From Candidatus Babelota bacterium (GTDB lineage Bacteria > Babelota > Babeliae > Babelales > Vermiphilaceae), in the NCBI GenBank assembly GCA_049325595.1, contig JBMOLF010000007.1:1-64000 (forward strand): a stretch of 64,000 bases of DNA, read 5' to 3'. The notes beneath the pieces were generated by a model. The model did no database searches. It was not told where the DNA came from and was given only the letters and a program-made list of their open reading frames with translations. Shown here piece after piece: positions 13,664-20,487 of the stretch. Within the stretch, counting starts at the first letter, position 1, and each line of letters opens with the position of its first letter. Position numbers and translations under genes: made by a program.

Positions 13664-16378
13664 TTAAAACTTCCAGCGGAACTCTGCTTCGGCGCTTGCA
13701 TCGCGGCGTTCATCGCGAATTGCCCGAATGCTAACATCATCAGAAACAAGATATTCAAGTTCAAATCGGGTGTCTTCAGATAAGCTAAAGTTTTTTTGAA
13801 TTAAAGCACGCCACCGATCACCAATTTCTATTTCTATGCCACCTCTAAGGCCGCCACGAGCAGTTTGATCGATAAAGCTTGGTGCTAAGTGAATATGCTT
13901 AAGTGGTTTGAGCATATGCCTAAAATAATTATCAAGTTTTAATGGCGACTGTTCTGATTCAAATATAATATTTTTAATATTTTGCATCACCAAAGCAGGC
14001 ATCACAATGTTTAATGATTCATTAGGAGAACCAACCAATAACAGGGCCATAATTTGATCTTCAGAAAGTGATGGCGAAGATTCTAAAGAAATAGTGTGAT
14101 TTTGTAAGGATCCTGAGACCGCTAATGTAACTTGATGTTTTTTTATAGTATTTTTTGCTAACAATTCAATAATCGGATCGTTTAGCCTATGGGGCAATAG
14201 AATAATTTCCGCTCTATTGATGTAAAGTGGTTTATAAGGGAAACTCAAGGTACCAGAATCTATTTGTATTGCCCCCGACAAATACGGATTAGATAGCGAA
14301 TTACCAATATTAACATTTACTTTTGCATTAGCTTCTAGAAACGCAGTTTTAATGCGTATTGGATCTCTGGTTTGTAATGTTATATCACAATTAATATTCG
14401 GTGGTGTTCCAGTACTTGGGGCAAAAAGTGCCTTTTGAAAAGTGGGCGAAAATAAATTCTCTTTAAGCTGTGATCGCTCAATAATTACATTACTTTGTAA
14501 AAAAGGTACTTTGCCATTTTGATACGAAAACAAGCAAGACCCAGAAACAATAGCAAAAAGATCTTTAGTGGGGTTTAAAAGACATGAATCAAAAAGAATT
14601 GGTAGGTGTATGTAGTTGAGATTATGGTCTTCAGTTAAAGATATAGTGCCCTTTTGACAGACTAACGAACCTTTATGCAACAAACATTCCGCTTTGGAAA
14701 TGGTACATTTCTTTTTATCAAAATCGATTTGAAAAGGAATGGATAATCCGGAAATAAAATTATAGGTTTGGGGCAAACGAATATTTGCTTGGGATAAATT
14801 ACATGTTCCTTTGATAATATGGTCTTTAGCTTGTGCTTCGATTAATAATTTCCCGTCAGCTTGTATATGATGTGCGACATGCGTTTTAAGTAAATCTTTT
14901 ATTAATGAAACATCAATTGTGCTTTGGATATGCAACCGATCATCAGGAGAACTTTTGAGCTCAAAAAGAGTTTGATTAGTTGGTTGTTGAGTATAGTGTG
15001 CATATAAAATTCCAAATGGATTTAAGCACAATGAGCTTTCAAATATGGCAGATTGATGATTACCTTTAATAATAATGTTTGGCCAGTCTAATTCGTAAGA
15101 ACCTTGTATGATAGCTAGATTTTCAGGTTTTATATGATGAAACGCATATGAGCCAGTTCCTTTTTGGTTGTTACCATCATAACTGCATTGTGCCGTGCAG
15201 GCAGGTAGTTTAAGAATAGGTAAAGTAATTGGATCTTTGACATGAATACCAAGCATGCCATTCGATTGATCAAGATTATAAAAAATAGTTGCATCAATGG
15301 TTTGACTTTTATCAAATTTTATACTGCAGTGCGAATTAATTAATTTTTTTTCTATATTAAGTGAAGCATCTAAATTATTGCAAAGCTGAGTATTATTTAA
15401 ATGAACATTATGAGCTTGCAGGTTAAATGTACCAGTAAAGCCGGAGGATGCAATAGTGTTATGGGCCTTCATAGTAAGGGCACCATTAAAATTGGGAAGT
15501 AACAACCCAGAAATAATACCTGCTAGATTGCTGCATAAATTTACATCAAGTGTAAGGTCGGTATCTAGCGTAATAACATCATCAGCTTGATGTGCGATTG
15601 TTTTACCGTTAATTAATTTTTCGTTAGGACTTTTTATGATCAAAGAGCCATTGTTTTTATTCCACTGCCCTTTAAGGATTAAAAGAAAAGGATCTGATGA
15701 ATGAGGGTGAACCATCCCATGGGTAGATATATGAGCAGTAGCCTCTAATTGTTTATTAGGTTGTTCAACTAACTCAATATGAATGTCGCCCGTATAGTGA
15801 GAAATAAGCAGTTTATTATCAACAATGCCATTGCCATCTAAAATCTGAACGATTGTTTTAAACATTCCAGGCATTTTTTTAGAATGACTTTGCCAGGTAA
15901 TAGTACCTTTATTTTTTTTATCTGGATCATGAAGTTCAAAAGAAGCATGTTGTAATTTAAGTTCACTTAGTGAAATAGGCACTCCCATTGCAGGCCGCAT
16001 CATACGTTCTATATGTGGCATAATGGCAAGTTTATTTTCATGGTATTGTGAACATGCTGAAATAGTTCCAATAGTAACGCGTAAATTTACTGCCCGTTTT
16101 AAAAATAAGTGAAGCCATGAAAAACCAGCACTAAAAAAATTAGTGTGCCAACTCCAATCATTGTCTTTTTTTGATTTAACTTTCATATGCTCAAGCTCAA
16201 GGCAAGGTAAAAAGAAATTGATGCGTTTAAGTGAAAATTCTACCTGACAATCAAGAGCTTCTTCAAAGGCTTTTTTAAATTCTTTACTAATGGTTGCTTG
16301 GACTGACTCATTATATTGCAATGATATAATGGTAACTATAATGCCAAGAAATAAGCCAAAAAAAATTTTTTTAATCAT
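13664..16378 (-). CDS. tamB: Translocation/assembly module TamB-like (AsmA-like) protein
   Basis: N-terminal anchor, long beta-rich body, LESSPSLSEDQIMALLLVG, C-terminal EFRWKF. Confidence 0.8.
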   Translation of the reverse strand: MIKKIFFGLFLGIIVTIISLQYNESVQATISKEFKKAFEEALDCQVEFSLKRINFFLPCLELEHMKVKSKKDNDWSWHTNFFSAGFSWLHLFLKRAVNLRVTIGTISACSQYHENKLAIMPHIERMMRPAMGVPISLSELKLQHASFELHDPDKKNKGTITWQSHSKKMPGMFKTIVQILDGNGIVDNKLLISHYTGDIHIELVEQPNKQLEATAHISTHGMVHPHSSDPFLLILKGQWNKNNGSLIIKSPNEKLINGKTIAHQADDVITLDTDLTLDVNLCSNLAGIISGLLLPNFNGALTMKAHNTIASSGFTGTFNLQAHNVHLNNTQLCNNLDASLNIEKKLINSHCSIKFDKSQTIDATIFYNLDQSNGMLGIHVKDPITLPILKLPACTAQCSYDGNNQKGTGSYAFHHIKPENLAIIQGSYELDWPNIIIKGNHQSAIFESSLCLNPFGILYAHYTQQPTNQTLFELKSSPDDRLHIQSTIDVSLIKDLLKTHVAHHIQADGKLLIEAQAKDHIIKGTCNLSQANIRLPQTYNFISGLSIPFQIDFDKKKCTISKAECLLHKGSLVCQKGTISLTEDHNLNYIHLPILFDSCLLNPTKDLFAIVSGSCLFSYQNGKVPFLQSNVIIERSQLKENLFSPTFQKALFAPSTGTPPNINCDITLQTRDPIRIKTAFLEANAKVNVNIGNSLSNPYLSGAIQIDSGTLSFPYKPLYINRAEIILLPHRLNDPIIELLAKNTIKKHQVTLAVSGSLQNHTISLESSPSLSEDQIMALLLVGSPNESLNIVMPALVMQNIKNIIFESEQSPLKLDNYFRHMLKPLKHIHLAPSFIDQTARGGLRGGIEIEIGDRWRALIQKNFSLSEDTRFELEYLVSDDVSIRAIRDERRDASAEAEFRWKF

Positions 16379-16896: not shown

Positions 16897-17008
16897 ATCT
16901 TGCCCATTTTCTTAATTTTAAAAACAAATTGATTGAATTCGACTACATCACCATATTAGGGTGCTTAATAATAATCTATTAAGTAAACCTTTTAAAAAAA
17001 GGAGTCTC

Positions 17009-17905
17009 ATGATTAAGTCATTAAGCATATATGTATTAATAGGTGTTTTTTGCATGCACCAACCACTCATGAAAGCTCAAGTTCCTGCGCAACCAGAAAA
17101 TAGCGAAATGATTGAGAAGGGGAGTTGCTGCAAACCAAAGCCAAGCTGTTGCTTCCCATGTAATCCTACGTCCTGCCCGCCAAAACCTTGCAACCCTTGC
17201 AATTCATGCAAGCCATCATGTTGCAGAGAAATGGAAGAAGGTCCTATGATGATGGAAAAAGGCTGCTGTAAGCCTCGTCCAAATTGTTGCTTTAATCCAT
17301 GCAGCCCTACAGCATGTCCGCCAAAACCGTGTAATACTTGCAATAGTTGTAAGCCATGTTGTAGAGATTATGACATGATAGATGTTAAAGACGTTAACCC
17401 CTCAATAATGTGTGAAATGCGTTATGCATCAGAAAATAATTGTACTAAGCAAGCGCTATGTAATAACAAATGCATGGTAAGAACAGTTGTTGCTAAAGCT
17501 CTTGATGCGGTGCAAAAAGAATTAGAAATGATGGGTATGTGTCTAAAAGTATGGGATGCATATCGTCCAATGTCTATGCAAGAAAAGTTATGGAAGGCGT
17601 GCCCAGATGAGCGTTACATGGTAAACCCAATGAATCCAGATTATCATTGCTGTGGTCTTGCAGTTGATGTGACTATGGTTGATTTGATGACTGCTGAAGA
17701 ATGTGAAATGCCATCAGACTTTAATGAATTTTCAATGCGCGCTCATTGTCAGAGCAGTGATTGCTCTATGATGGCACAACGCAATTATCATATTTTACAT
17801 GATGTGATGATCAGACATGGCTTTAAGAGCTATGATGCTCAATGGCACTATTTTTATTTTGACCAATGCCCAGATTGCATGCCACTTGATATGGAATTAG
17901 AATAA
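17009..17905 (+). CDS. Cys-rich exported protein: two Cys-rich repeats plus a VanX/DdpX (M15D) D-Ala-D-Ala dipeptidase-like domain, probably inactive
   Basis: AGGAG RBS; signal peptide; MRYASENN, LKVWDAYRP, HCCGLAVDVT, MPSDFNEFS; EWWH replaced by QWHY. Confidence 0.85.
   Translation: MIKSLSIYVLIGVFCMHQPLMKAQVPAQPENSEMIEKGSCCKPKPSCCFPCNPTSCPPKPCNPCNSCKPSCCREMEEGPMMMEKGCCKPRPNCCFNPCSPTACPPKPCNTCNSCKPCCRDYDMIDVKDVNPSIMCEMRYASENNCTKQALCNNKCMVRTVVAKALDAVQKELEMMGMCLKVWDAYRPMSMQEKLWKACPDERYMVNPMNPDYHCCGLAVDVTMVDLMTAEECEMPSDFNEFSMRAHCQSSDCSMMAQRNYHILHDVMIRHGFKSYDAQWHYFYFDQCPDCMPLDMELE
17108..17368 (+). repeat. Two tandem copies of an 11-Cys peptide repeat
   Basis: CCKPKPSCCFPCNPTSCPPKPCNPCNSCKPSCCR and CCKPRPNCCFNPCSPTACPPKPCNTCNSCKPCCR. 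Confidence 0.9.
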
Positions 17906-17922: not shown

Positions 17923-17953
17923 AAAAAAGCTCGGTGTTATGCCGAGCTTTTTT
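17923..17953 (+). terminator. Rho-independent terminator
   Basis: AAAAAAGCTCGG-TGTTATG-CCGAGCTTTTTT. Confidence 0.85.
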
Positions 17954-18208: not shown

Positions 18209-19867
18209 GTGATGAAATATCTAATATTTGTGCTTTGTTATTTTTCCCTGCATGCAATGGAGCATCCAATTGAACAATTCAAATTAATTCCTATTCCTAT
18301 TATAGCAGCACCTGTTGCGCCAACGCATGGTGGTTTATTAGTAGATGATCTGCGTCGTATAGAAAAATTAAATGAGATTGCTGCAGATAGAGGATTAGAA
18401 GCATTTAGAAGTTCCCTATCTAAGTACTTTAAACAAAAACAACAAGAAGATTGCTTTGAGGAACTAATTTTTTTGGTGTCGGCATTGTATGCTCAGCATA
18501 TGATAATGGGTAAAATAGAAGCATATAGTTATCTTAACATGGCTAAGTCGAGCTATTATCAGCATTTAAAAAATAACTCTCATGATTTACAGTTGCATCC
18601 TGATGGCCAAATTGCTGGAGCCATTTTTGATTGTGGTACAGTTTCGGCTATGGCATTTTGTATACAAAAAAAAGATTTATTCACGCGTTCTGAACAGGAA
18701 ATTATTAAAGAAATAGCCCCGCTATATTTAAGCTCAGACAAGCAACTTATTTCGATTGCTGAAGCTTTTAGGGCTTATATAAATAGTGAAAAATTAGTGC
18801 CGTTAATAGATTCTCTGTATCAAAACTATGATAAAGTTTCATTTGGTTTGGTTAAACTCTGTATAAAATGTTTTTTTAAACTTCCGTTCGTAACGTCATT
18901 AAAAGAATGGTATGAAATTCATGAAAAAAAATTAAAACAGAAAATGGCCCAGATTTCACAAAAAAGTATTTTTGATCCTATGATGCTCAAGCTTTCAAGC
19001 TTATCACAACAATATCTAGCATCGCAGCAGCAATATATTCGCTTGTATGAAAATCTTTATAAAACTATAAAACAATTAACTGATGTCCCTATTACCAATA
19101 CTATTGACCCTAAACAAGGCAGTGAATTGTTACCTTCTACGTTAAAAGAAATAAAACCGATTGCCAGTATTTTAAAAATAAGTGGCTATGATACTGAGCT
19201 CGAACGATTGATACATGAAAATCAATTGACATTAAAACAAATAAAAGATGTTATTCAAAAGCAAAAAAAGATAAAAATCTCTGATGATGGTTTTGTCACC
19301 GCTGGTGACGTTACTGATTCAATCGTTATGATCCATGACACTCGTAACAATGCAACTTTGCAATTGATAAAAAATCCACAAAATAAGCTCATTACTATAG
19401 CTTTGCCTCTTATATATGCAGCAAATGTAAAAGAGTGGCTGCAAAGCCCGCAAGAAGCTATAAAAAACCAAGGTTATAATAAAGTTGGCAGTAGAAAATA
19501 TGCATTGACACAACAAGGAGGATATGATCCCATTTTGCTTCATGCCTTTTCTATATTGGTAGATGATTATCTGCCAGAGTGTGCAACGCAAACAGAAACA
19601 GTAAGTAGAAAAAAACCATTACAAAAAGATATATTGCTAACCATTGCTGGATCGATAACTGATAAAAATAATAAAGAAATGACCGGTATTTTTACGTACT
19701 TAATAGATAGCAAAACAGGTGTTTGCTATCATCGCTTTTTTGAACCGCAACTGGGTACACAGCTTATCAAAAATTTTTATGAACAGGGCTATTTTGCGCC
19801 GTCGGCAGGAGGATATTATGATATTGCTTTTCCTTCATTATCCGAAACAGATAAAGGTCCCAAGTAA
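18209..19867 (+). CDS. Secreted hypothetical protein with conserved C-terminal LLHAF...CYHRFF domain
   Basis: Signal peptide LHA then ME; C-terminal domain shared with 19873..20487. Confidence 0.8.
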   Translation: MMKYLIFVLCYFSLHAMEHPIEQFKLIPIPIIAAPVAPTHGGLLVDDLRRIEKLNEIAADRGLEAFRSSLSKYFKQKQQEDCFEELIFLVSALYAQHMIMGKIEAYSYLNMAKSSYYQHLKNNSHDLQLHPDGQIAGAIFDCGTVSAMAFCIQKKDLFTRSEQEIIKEIAPLYLSSDKQLISIAEAFRAYINSEKLVPLIDSLYQNYDKVSFGLVKLCIKCFFKLPFVTSLKEWYEIHEKKLKQKMAQISQKSIFDPMMLKLSSLSQQYLASQQQYIRLYENLYKTIKQLTDVPITNTIDPKQGSELLPSTLKEIKPIASILKISGYDTELERLIHENQLTLKQIKDVIQKQKKIKISDDGFVTAGDVTDSIVMIHDTRNNATLQLIKNPQNKLITIALPLIYAANVKEWLQSPQEAIKNQGYNKVGSRKYALTQQGGYDPILLHAFSILVDDYLPECATQTETVSRKKPLQKDILLTIAGSITDKNNKEMTGIFTYLIDSKTGVCYHRFFEPQLGTQLIKNFYEQGYFAPSAGGYYDIAFPSLSETDKGPK

Positions 19868-19872
19868 GAATC

Positions 19873-20487
19873 ATGAAGTTCTCAAAGTTGCTAAAAATAG
19901 TAATGTTTATAGGCCTTGCGGTAGTTGTTGCAGTAGGTATTGATCGTCTAGTTCTATTGAGTTTGCGTATAGTGCAATCGCAACTTAATTCTCAGCAACG
20001 GAGTGATAATATATCACCTTCTTGTTCATTGTATGAAAATTTAACTTATGCGCGTATTTATGATGTTTATAACCAGGCGGAGCTTATTATATATAAACCG
20101 CGGGATGTTCACGGATATCCAGTTAAGCTGCCATTACGATATACTCATAATATTAAAACATGGTTTGACAATCCTAATCAAGCGTTGCAAGATCAAGGAT
20201 ATTTAATTCCAGGAACAAAAAAATATTTTCTTACAGCAGTAAAAGGTTATGATCCTATTTTGTTACATGCTTTTTCACGTGAAGTTGATCAATTTGTGCC
20301 ATGCTGGGGATATAAGTCCACTACGCTGAGTAGAAAGCATAAAGGGCAACAAGATCTAGTCTTGAGTATGTACGGTCATATCATAGATAGGCATCATAAA
20401 AAAATACGTGGGGCATTTACCTGTTTTTTTGATGCGCTAACTGGTATGTGTTACCATCGTTTTTTTCAACCACAATATTCTTACTAG
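19873..20487 (+). CDS. Membrane-anchored/secreted paralog carrying only the LLHAF...CYHRFF domain
   Basis: GYDPILLHAFS and TG.CYHRFF.PQ shared with upstream gene. Confidence 0.8.
   Translation: MKFSKLLKIVMFIGLAVVVAVGIDRLVLLSLRIVQSQLNSQQRSDNISPSCSLYENLTYARIYDVYNQAELIIYKPRDVHGYPVKLPLRYTHNIKTWFDNPNQALQDQGYLIPGTKKYFLTAVKGYDPILLHAFSREVDQFVPCWGYKSTTLSRKHKGQQDLVLSMYGHIIDRHHKKIRGAFTCFFDALTGMCYHRFFQPQYSY

Follow-up and report, generated by a model that had tools for sequence, protein, structure and literature searches.

Cys/Pro-rich repeats joined to a degenerate VanX-like domain in a sulfur-dense protein of the Dependentiae

The gene and its product

This report concerns a gene at positions 17009 to 17905 of a 64,000-nucleotide (nt) stretch of DNA, hereafter the window, which comprises positions 1 to 64,000 of contig JBMOLF010000007.1 from a Candidatus Babelota bacterium of the Dependentiae. 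The assembly that holds the window (GCA_049325595.1, here G000) consists of 24 contigs totalling 1.29 Mb and is 95% complete. The gene encodes a protein of 298 amino acids (aa) in which a signal-peptide-like N-terminus is followed by two repeats rich in cysteine (Cys) and proline (Pro) and by a degenerate Peptidase_M15 domain of the M15D (VanX/DdpX-like) type (Table 1). An earlier note made from the sequence alone had described a 298-aa protein with many methionines (Met) and with 36 Cys divided 1/11/11/13 among signal, repeats and domain, and had read the motifs DAYRP, H-x6-D and QWHY in the domain. Our translation and counts agree with it on all of these: 28 Met were counted, the Cys number 1 in aa 1-24, 11 in aa 40-72, 11 in aa 86-118 and 13 in aa 121-298, and DAYRP is read at residues 183-187.

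Orthologues begin at an equivalent MIK or MTK, which favors the ATG at 17009 as start codon over an upstream GTG at 16961. The note had also credited the gene with its own ribosome-binding site (RBS) and terminator. This is in keeping with an AAGGAG that ends 4 nt upstream and with a downstream hairpin whose minimum free energy of -18 kcal/mol (z = -6.1) was equalled by 0 of 200 shuffles; a simple terminator pattern scan reported 0 sites, at this hairpin as elsewhere. Four sequencing runs, taken as contigs, yielded only 151-base pieces, in which no indel or joint was seen.

Export is read from a signal-peptide-like N-terminus with a lysine, a hydrophobic helix and an MKA/Q junction, and the helix predicted over residues 4-16 in an AlphaFold2 (AF2) model supports this reading. 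The orthologue from strain Noda2021 (P0003) has VHA/Q in place of MKA/Q. A canonical lipobox (consensus [LVI][ASTVI][GAS]C) was not found on reading the N-terminal sequence, in which Cys15 is preceded by G-V-F (G-V-M in P0003) and is followed by the type I site.

Table 1. Coordinates of the features of the window gene and of the Cys-rich barrel genes. Positions are those of the window except where a contig (C15) is named.
Feature	Position	Strand	Basis
Shine-Dalgarno-like AAGGAG, ends 4 nt before ATG	16999..17004	+	sequence reading
Coding sequence, 298 aa plus stop, 36 Cys, 28 Met	17009..17905	+	translation of the open reading frame (ORF), counts
Signal-peptide-like N-terminus, aa 1-24: K3, hydrophobic core, MKA/Q	17009..17080	+	sequence reading
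Cys/Pro-rich repeat 1, aa 33-74, 11 Cys	17105..17230	+	repeat alignment, counts
Cys/Pro-rich repeat 2, aa 80-120, 11 Cys	17246..17368	+	alignment to repeat 1
Degenerate Peptidase_M15 (M15D, VanX/DdpX-like) domain, aa 121-298, 13 Cys, 20 Met	17369..17902	+	Pfam, NCBIfam, Foldseek
H213-x6-D220, first two zinc-ligand positions, kept in window protein	17645..17668	+	alignment
QWHY, residues 278-281, where the family has EWWH	17840..17851	+	profile and pairwise alignments
C287-P-D-C290, CxxC	17867..17878	+	column comparison
Terminator-like hairpin, then T run	17923..17953	+	folding
Three tandem paralogous barrel-like outer-membrane genes, 543/654/666 aa, 17/29/35 Cys	C15:66119-73953 (L001, L031)	-	

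A VanX-like domain with a degenerate catalytic site

Both sequence and structure comparisons bear out the assignment to M15D made in the earlier note. Pfam family PF01427 matches residues 122-282 with 82.3 bits against a cut-off of 27 (E = 5.3e-23), and the best Foldseek match of the AF2 model is VanX 1r44_A (E = 6.9e-12; template modelling (TM) score by target 0.72). Model confidence (predicted local distance difference test, pLDDT) has block means of 60-97 over the domain, most of them between 75 and 97, and lies below 50 over residues 17-120. The protein falls short of the NCBIfam equivalog models for DdpX (NF007557, 116.3 bits against a cut-off of 176) and VanX (NF033115, 62.6 bits against 320).

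Zinc in VanX is reported to be bound through His116, Asp123 and His184, with Glu181 as the catalytic base (bioRxiv 10.1101/2023.10.13.562161). The corresponding columns were compared across 160 homologues, made up of 12 matches from a word-based search and 148 of the best 150 from an exhaustive search of 1.84 billion representatives. Seven catalytic columns read R-H-D-E-W-W-H in 151 of the 160. The window protein and P0002, an orthologue 93% identical to it, read R-H-D-Q-W-H-(Y) instead; P0003 reads R-H-N-E-W-H-(N), retaining the Glu with Asp changed to Asn at a zinc-ligand position; and the metagenomic relative P0004 reads R-N-S-Q-W-H-(Y), with His changed to Asn and Asp to Ser. At the position of the catalytic base the window protein thus has Gln278, where 155 of the 160 homologues have Glu; R186 is retained. 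Forty-two columns are conserved in at least 80% of the family, of which 29 are unchanged in all four proteins and 13 are changed. Conserved residues lost throughout this clade of four are Tyr at Y151C (Tyr in 157/160 homologues), Arg at R215C (134/160) and Asp at D239N (156/160).

The earlier note had pointed out that EWWH supplies both the catalytic Glu and a zinc-binding His in VanX, and had concluded from QWHY that activity is probably lost. Loss of the Glu stands, and loss of the His depends on the alignment chosen. The profile of the 160 homologues sets QWHY on EWWH without a gap, which would place Tyr281 at the third zinc-ligand position, whereas a pairwise HMMER alignment to VanX 1r44 opens a one-residue (Trp) deletion and sets H280 on the EWWH histidine, which we take to be His184 from motif order. 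The Glu-to-Gln change appears in either alignment. Catalytic degeneration as such is stronger than had been claimed, since the four members differ in their active-site changes and have three further losses in common. On these alignments the M15D domain of the window protein is very probably a pseudoenzyme. Because no member of the clade has a complete catalytic site and different members have lost different residues, the pattern reads as the signature of relaxed selection on catalysis.

Elsewhere among exported M15D proteins, P0060 (11 Cys) and P0072 have Q-H-D-D at the R-H-D-E columns, and P0141 carries a long Pro/Thr-rich linker of KPPTATT repeats followed by a canonical domain.

Enrichment in cysteine and methionine

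The window protein ranks first among the 1061 ORFs of at least 150 aa in the genome for Cys fraction, for Met fraction and for the two combined. Its combined share is 20.7%, against 10.2% for the runner-up in the same set, and the mean for window ORFs of at least 150 aa is 1.4% Cys and 2.2% Met. The enrichment extends into the enzyme-derived domain, which has 7% Cys and 11% Met in the window protein and 6.8-7.7% Cys and 8.5-11.6% Met across the four clade members; the same domain in the 160 homologues averages 1.2% Cys and 2.3% Met, with maxima of 5.9% and 4.4%.

A comparison of columns places the new Met of the domain at 9 positions with consensus Leu, Val, Ile or Ala and at 8 that are polar or charged. 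New Cys occupy 8 positions with an aromatic or hydrophobic consensus (including F145, Y151, L232, W287 and Y290) and 4 with a polar one. The C-P-D-C motif at residues 287-290 is present in 4/4 clade members, and canonical homologues have Trp and Tyr at its two Cys positions. Ten of the 12 domain Cys that replace another consensus residue are common to all four members, and P0002 keeps 22/22 Cys of the two repeats.

The Cys/Pro-rich repeats

The two repeats are 41-42 aa long, are identical at 32/40 aa and 87/120 nt in a pairwise alignment, and are joined by a Met/Glu-rich linker, EMEEGPMMMEKG. With 22 Cys and 20 Pro, the stretch of residues 25-120 is 23% Cys and 21% Pro, and aromatics number only 2. 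Tandem Repeats Finder reported no repeat at the DNA level, and the repeats are seen only in the protein and in the pairwise DNA alignment. In the Noda2021 orthologue the same design (KGCCKPRPSCCNPC...CCR[DE]) recurs four times in a shorter form, again with Met/Glu-rich linkers, so that copy number varies from 2 in the window protein to 4 in that strain. In the AF2 model the low confidence of this region is consistent with a module that is probably an extended arm.

The earlier note had likened the repeats to chlamydial OmcA. The OmcA model PF03503 gave nothing at E <= 10 in the whole protein, in the repeat regions of the window protein and the Noda2021 orthologue, or in the six-frame translation of the genome; the resemblance is one of composition and concept, not of homology. 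No other Pfam family matched the repeats of either protein at the same threshold. Word-based searches with the repeat region returned only P0002 among proteins of 163-522 aa and none among those of 30-162 aa, and P0002 alone matched the N-terminal part among the 150 matches listed from the exhaustive search. A search of the ESM Atlas with the repeat region gave no usable feature match, its structural rows all having TM <0.35. A small exported Cys-rich protein was considered as a homologue of the repeats and rejected (BLASTP E = 0.24, composition only).

Distribution, origin and locus

An M15D gene was found in 118 of 261 Dependentiae genomes, and the match reaches the repeats only in G000 and G246, both of the window's genus. 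G246 is a single contig and encodes a 370-aa protein identical to that of Noda2021. With P0004, a domain-only gene call of 176 aa that may lack the repeats or be truncated, the clade is known from one genus, represented by two genomes and two metagenomic proteins. The earlier note had proposed a survey of Dependentiae orthologues for loss of EWWH together with gain of Cys. This combination was found in the clade of four and did not extend beyond it in the copies surveyed: 11 of 20 fetched loci could be parsed, 9 of these were canonical, and 9/9 canonical copies keep EWWH and H..D and have 1-8 Cys and 3-11 Met.

A quick maximum-likelihood tree, built on 73 rows, unites the four members (Shimodaira-Hasegawa-like approximate likelihood ratio test (SH-aLRT) 99) in a clade whose stem measures 0.77 changes per site. 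This clade is nested in a 42-row group (support 94) that also takes in each of the 9 Dependentiae M15D rows, and the row closest to it is P0060. The tree comes from a quick search only, and the amino-acid composition of the clade violates the substitution model. G000 holds 1 M15D match and no separate canonical copy was found in it; it is therefore the lineage's sole M15D copy that was converted.

The only named homologue is annotated as 'hypothetical protein Noda2021_11100'. Searches of article full text for Dependentiae cysteine-rich proteins, for Chromulinavorax with cysteine and for VanX pseudoenzymes returned nothing relevant. The fusion of repeats to an M15D domain thus appears to be undescribed, as the earlier note had supposed. 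The protein is a variant within the known M15D family. It is a striking case, limited to one genus, and its function is inferred.

Neighboring genes are envelope genes, encoding TamB, a pseudopilin, a GspE/PilB ATPase and a BamD-like protein. Synteny extends to G246, where TamB, the pseudopilin, the orthologue of the window gene and a paralogous gene of unknown family follow the same arrangement; outside the genus, none was found across 18 loci with flanks of about 1.5 kb, and PilB was nearby in one of them. Downstream in the window, two adjoining genes on the + strand (18209-19867 and 19873-20487; 552 and 204 aa) have a common C-terminal region, GYDPILLHAFS...CYHRFF. They match no Pfam family, and a relative stands at the same place in G246 (L005). 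At L005:2738-3207 the pseudopilin match of G246 falls in two pieces and not in one frame, which suggests a frameshift or an assembly error.

Genomic context for a proposed oxidized envelope

Ddl and three penicillin-binding proteins (PBPs) are encoded in the genome, and peptidoglycan is therefore made. A gene for a VKOR-type thiol oxidase is also present. Cys-rich barrel-like proteins occur in tandem on contig C15 (Table 1), and in the two longer ones a low-complexity, Cys-rich loop lies just before the C-terminal strand, with 11 and 19 Cys in the last 130 residues; a loop of the first gene reads ...CNPCNTSCNTACNTSC... This barrel family was found in 80/80 genomes of the taxonomic family, usually in several copies, and each of the best 12 loci has a Cys-rich C-terminal loop with 4-19 Cys within the last 130 residues. 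The sole Pfam hint for the C15 family is a weak match to PF13557 (E = 0.024).

Related organisms are reported to have a durable extracellular stage. Chromulinavorax forms inactive, infectious cocci outside its host that contain dark material in the periplasm and keep their infectivity for years; it has a complete mur pathway and is reported to encode no lipopolysaccharide biosynthesis genes (PMC6561590). Noda2021 cells were collected from the supernatant of infected Vermamoeba cultures (PMC8812299). The VKOR gene, the Cys-rich barrel loops and the durable stage of related bacteria together favor an envelope linked by disulfides.

Several other genes in the assembly are of note for their Cys content or their relation to the cell wall. 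On contig C23 (L002), a 102-aa exported protein with 10 Cys (14088-14396, +) is followed by a putative lipoprotein (LVPAC) of 162 aa whose N-terminal part holds the cluster CRRRCYDCPPKCEEQC (14803-15291, +). Neither belongs to a Pfam family, and the design of this pair is nearer to OmcA than that of the window protein. A 137-aa ORF with 25 Cys (18%) in CxxxC-type spacing adjoins a PBP gene at C12:63668-64081 (-; L003); no signal peptide and no Pfam match were found in it. Two D-Ala-D-Ala ligase C-terminal domains lie in one 770-aa frame at C10:18699-20387 (-; L024/L025), which looks like a tandem-fused Ddl. Paralogous Cys/His-rich proteins with signal-like N-termini are encoded at C23:27389-28468, C23:28611-30236, C17:5355-6638, C15:230232-231197 and C10:105652-106509. 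Their CC...W.EF..H....H and C..C...H...H patterns recall C2H2 zinc fingers, and they may be host-directed effectors.

The 6.7-kb contig C20 carries a copper-type island (C20:1569-6672), in which two HMA domains at the contig end accompany an exported protein of 148 aa with 22 Met and a multicopper-oxidase-like ORF of 738 aa with 44 Met. No gene with an HMA domain (CopA/CopZ-type) was found in a complete genome of the same genus. The membership of C20 is in doubt for this reason, and the contig may be a binning contaminant or strain-specific.

Proposed function and alternatives

The reading that we prefer, with a probability of roughly 0.4, is that the window gene encodes a structural, disulfide-linked exported envelope protein of an amoeba-parasitic member of the Dependentiae, derived from a periplasmic M15D peptidase. 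Its ancestor would have been the ordinary periplasmic M15D (VanX/DdpX-type) D-Ala-D-Ala peptidase of the phylum. Within one genus, the catalytic machinery was lost, the fold was re-studded with Cys and Met, and an N-terminal Cys/Pro repeat module was gained. The architecture, the degenerate active site, the sulfur enrichment, the confinement to one genus and the genomic context are observed; export, cross-linking by disulfides, its partners and any binding of peptidoglycan are inferred. After export, the thiols would be oxidized, for which the VKOR-type oxidase is a candidate. Intramolecular disulfides would take over from the stabilizing zinc site, the fold no longer relying on zinc, and intermolecular disulfides would join the protein to further Cys-rich components of the envelope, above all to the Cys-rich loops that the major barrel family of the outer membrane carries. 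Such cross-links would stiffen the envelope of a durable extracellular infectious stage, and the Pro-rich repeats would form an extended arm, longer in some species than in others. Stem peptides of peptidoglycan may still be held in the pocket of the dead peptidase; retained binding is possible because the Glu-to-Gln and Asp-to-Asn changes preserve side-chain shape.

A number of observations weigh against this proposal. About half of the new Cys and Met sit at hydrophobic or aromatic consensus positions, which are probably buried, and in those columns the placement would fit selection for sulfur content, or for internal disulfides, better than selection for cross-links at the surface. The 4- to 5-fold excess of Met is left unexplained by a cross-linking model, because methionine cannot cross-link; such a model could explain the surface Cys but not the Met excess or the probable core changes. 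Exported ORFs are collectively not enriched in Cys (1.32% against 1.30%, with a crude predictor), and neither DsbB nor a DsbA of the Thioredoxin_4 type was found in the 95% complete genome. Homology of the repeats to a Cys-rich barrel loop was rejected, the likeness being compositional only (BLASTP E = 0.06). A new tether is also not required, because the genome already encodes one conventional peptidoglycan-binding domain of the OmpA/Pal type. Lastly, the lost residues Y151, R215 and D239 may include substrate-binding positions, and their loss weakens the case for retained binding of D-Ala-D-Ala.

The main rival to the structural reading, somewhat unlikely in our judgment, is that the protein serves as a metal or oxidant sponge, its Cys and Met binding Cu(I) or Zn(II) or being sacrificially oxidized and so protecting the parasite in the amoebal phagosome against copper and zinc poisoning and reactive oxygen. 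Amoebae turn copper and zinc against their prey, and such a role would account jointly for the Cys and the Met excess. The MxM and MMM linkers between repeats fit it, as does the metallothionein-like composition of CxxC and CC spacing with few aromatics, and the complete genome of the same genus, which has no HMA-domain gene, offers no conventional copper handling that we could find. The Pro content of the repeats (21%), however, is atypical for metallothioneins, no metallothionein or copper-binding Pfam family was matched at E <= 10, and thiols would be expected as disulfides in an oxidizing periplasm with VKOR. Many of the new Met and Cys, moreover, are at probable core positions, and the only copper genes of the assembly are those on the 6.7-kb contig of uncertain membership.

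A bolder form of the structural proposal, which we regard as distinctly unlikely, would have the Dependentiae independently evolve a chlamydia-like, disulfide-locked envelope for the dormant stage. In the genus of the window organism, the dead D-Ala-D-Ala peptidase with its Cys/Pro arm would couple peptidoglycan stems to the Cys-rich barrel loops, and Met would act as an oxidant buffer that keeps the lock reversible at host entry. If this were true, the protein would represent a class of tether between wall and membrane that is new and that arose from a pseudoenzyme.

Export past the envelope, for example via the neighboring type II/type IV-pilus-like machinery, would make the protein a secreted effector that acts on the host. 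A pseudopilin gene flanks the window gene and a GspE/PilB ATPase gene is near, and Dependentiae are described as secreting many signal-peptide proteins in the passages cited above (PMC6561590). The adjacent genes, on the other hand, are divergent or in separate transcription units, and the window gene comes with an RBS and a hairpin of its own. A domain resembling those of hosts was not found, and an M15D ancestry points to the bacterial wall. We consider this role quite improbable.

Two further possibilities are very improbable. A sulfur amino-acid reserve, stored in the infectious particle and broken down at entry as a source of Cys and Met, much as seed storage albumins or spore small acid-soluble proteins (SASPs) are, would agree with the enrichment of both residues at surface and core alike, which suggests selection on composition and not on sites; the retention of 22/22 repeat Cys in P0002 and of 10/12 domain Cys in all four members suggests site-specific constraint instead, and we know of no bacterial precedent for such a protein. 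A still-active and perhaps redox-regulated DD-peptidase, whose rearranged site would bind zinc through H213, D220 and H280 in an E/Q-x-H geometry that resembles the HxH motif of other LAS enzymes, could be argued from the pairwise alignment that sets H280 on the zinc-ligand His, from the Glu kept in Noda2021 and from the kept R186, but Gln takes the place of the catalytic base in the window protein, the Asp ligand is missing from Noda2021, P0004 lacks both His and Asp, no clade member has the full catalytic set, and the profile alignment is gap-free.

As a structural envelope protein or otherwise, the window gene provides a concrete and testable handle on how Dependentiae survive outside their protist hosts and how they build their envelope. 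It points to a housekeeping wall enzyme that was turned, in this one genus, into an envelope protein which is dense in sulfur and probably structural or protective. It also offers a clear natural example of a pseudoenzyme, in which the catalytic residues that were lost vary from orthologue to orthologue; such an example helps in understanding how the LAS/M15 fold is repurposed. Biochemical study is feasible because the orthologue is carried by Noda2021, a strain of the same genus that can be cultivated in Vermamoeba. The narrow distribution, in one genus, limits the general reach of the finding.

Comparison with known systems

The closest known system is VanX/DdpX (M15D, PF01427, 1r44). The window domain scores above the PF01427 cut-off, has the VanX fold, and keeps WDAYRP, H-x6-D and 29 of the 42 conserved columns. 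It differs in having Gln for the catalytic Glu, Tyr or a shifted residue at the third zinc-ligand position, and replacements of Y151, R215 and D239, as well as in its 7% Cys and 11% Met and in the attached Cys/Pro repeat module. A predicted N-terminal export signal is a feature that the window protein has in common with most Dependentiae M15D copies. The exported M15D proteins P0141, P0060 and P0072 all differ from it in lacking the Cys/Pro repeats, the Met excess and a QWHY or EWHN motif.

For the repeats, we take high-sulfur keratin-associated proteins and metallothioneins to be compositional analogues. They resemble the repeats in CC-x-P-x and C-x-x-C spacing, in high Cys and Pro and in the scarcity of aromatics, whereas the window protein is bacterial, is predicted to be exported, is fused to a folded domain and matches no family in its repeats.

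With the OmcA of chlamydiae, the window protein has no sequence relationship (PF03503 gave no match). Judged by sequence it is no lipoprotein; it is also three times as large as OmcA and has an enzyme-derived domain and an excess of Met. Its likeness to the chlamydial OmcA/OmcB/MOMP complex lies in the concept of a disulfide-stiffened envelope, here a proposed one, and in the occurrence of small Cys-dense segments together with Cys-rich outer-membrane barrels in one genome. The likeness extends to the way of life, in that both belong to obligate intracellular bacteria, the window organism having relatives with a durable extracellular stage.

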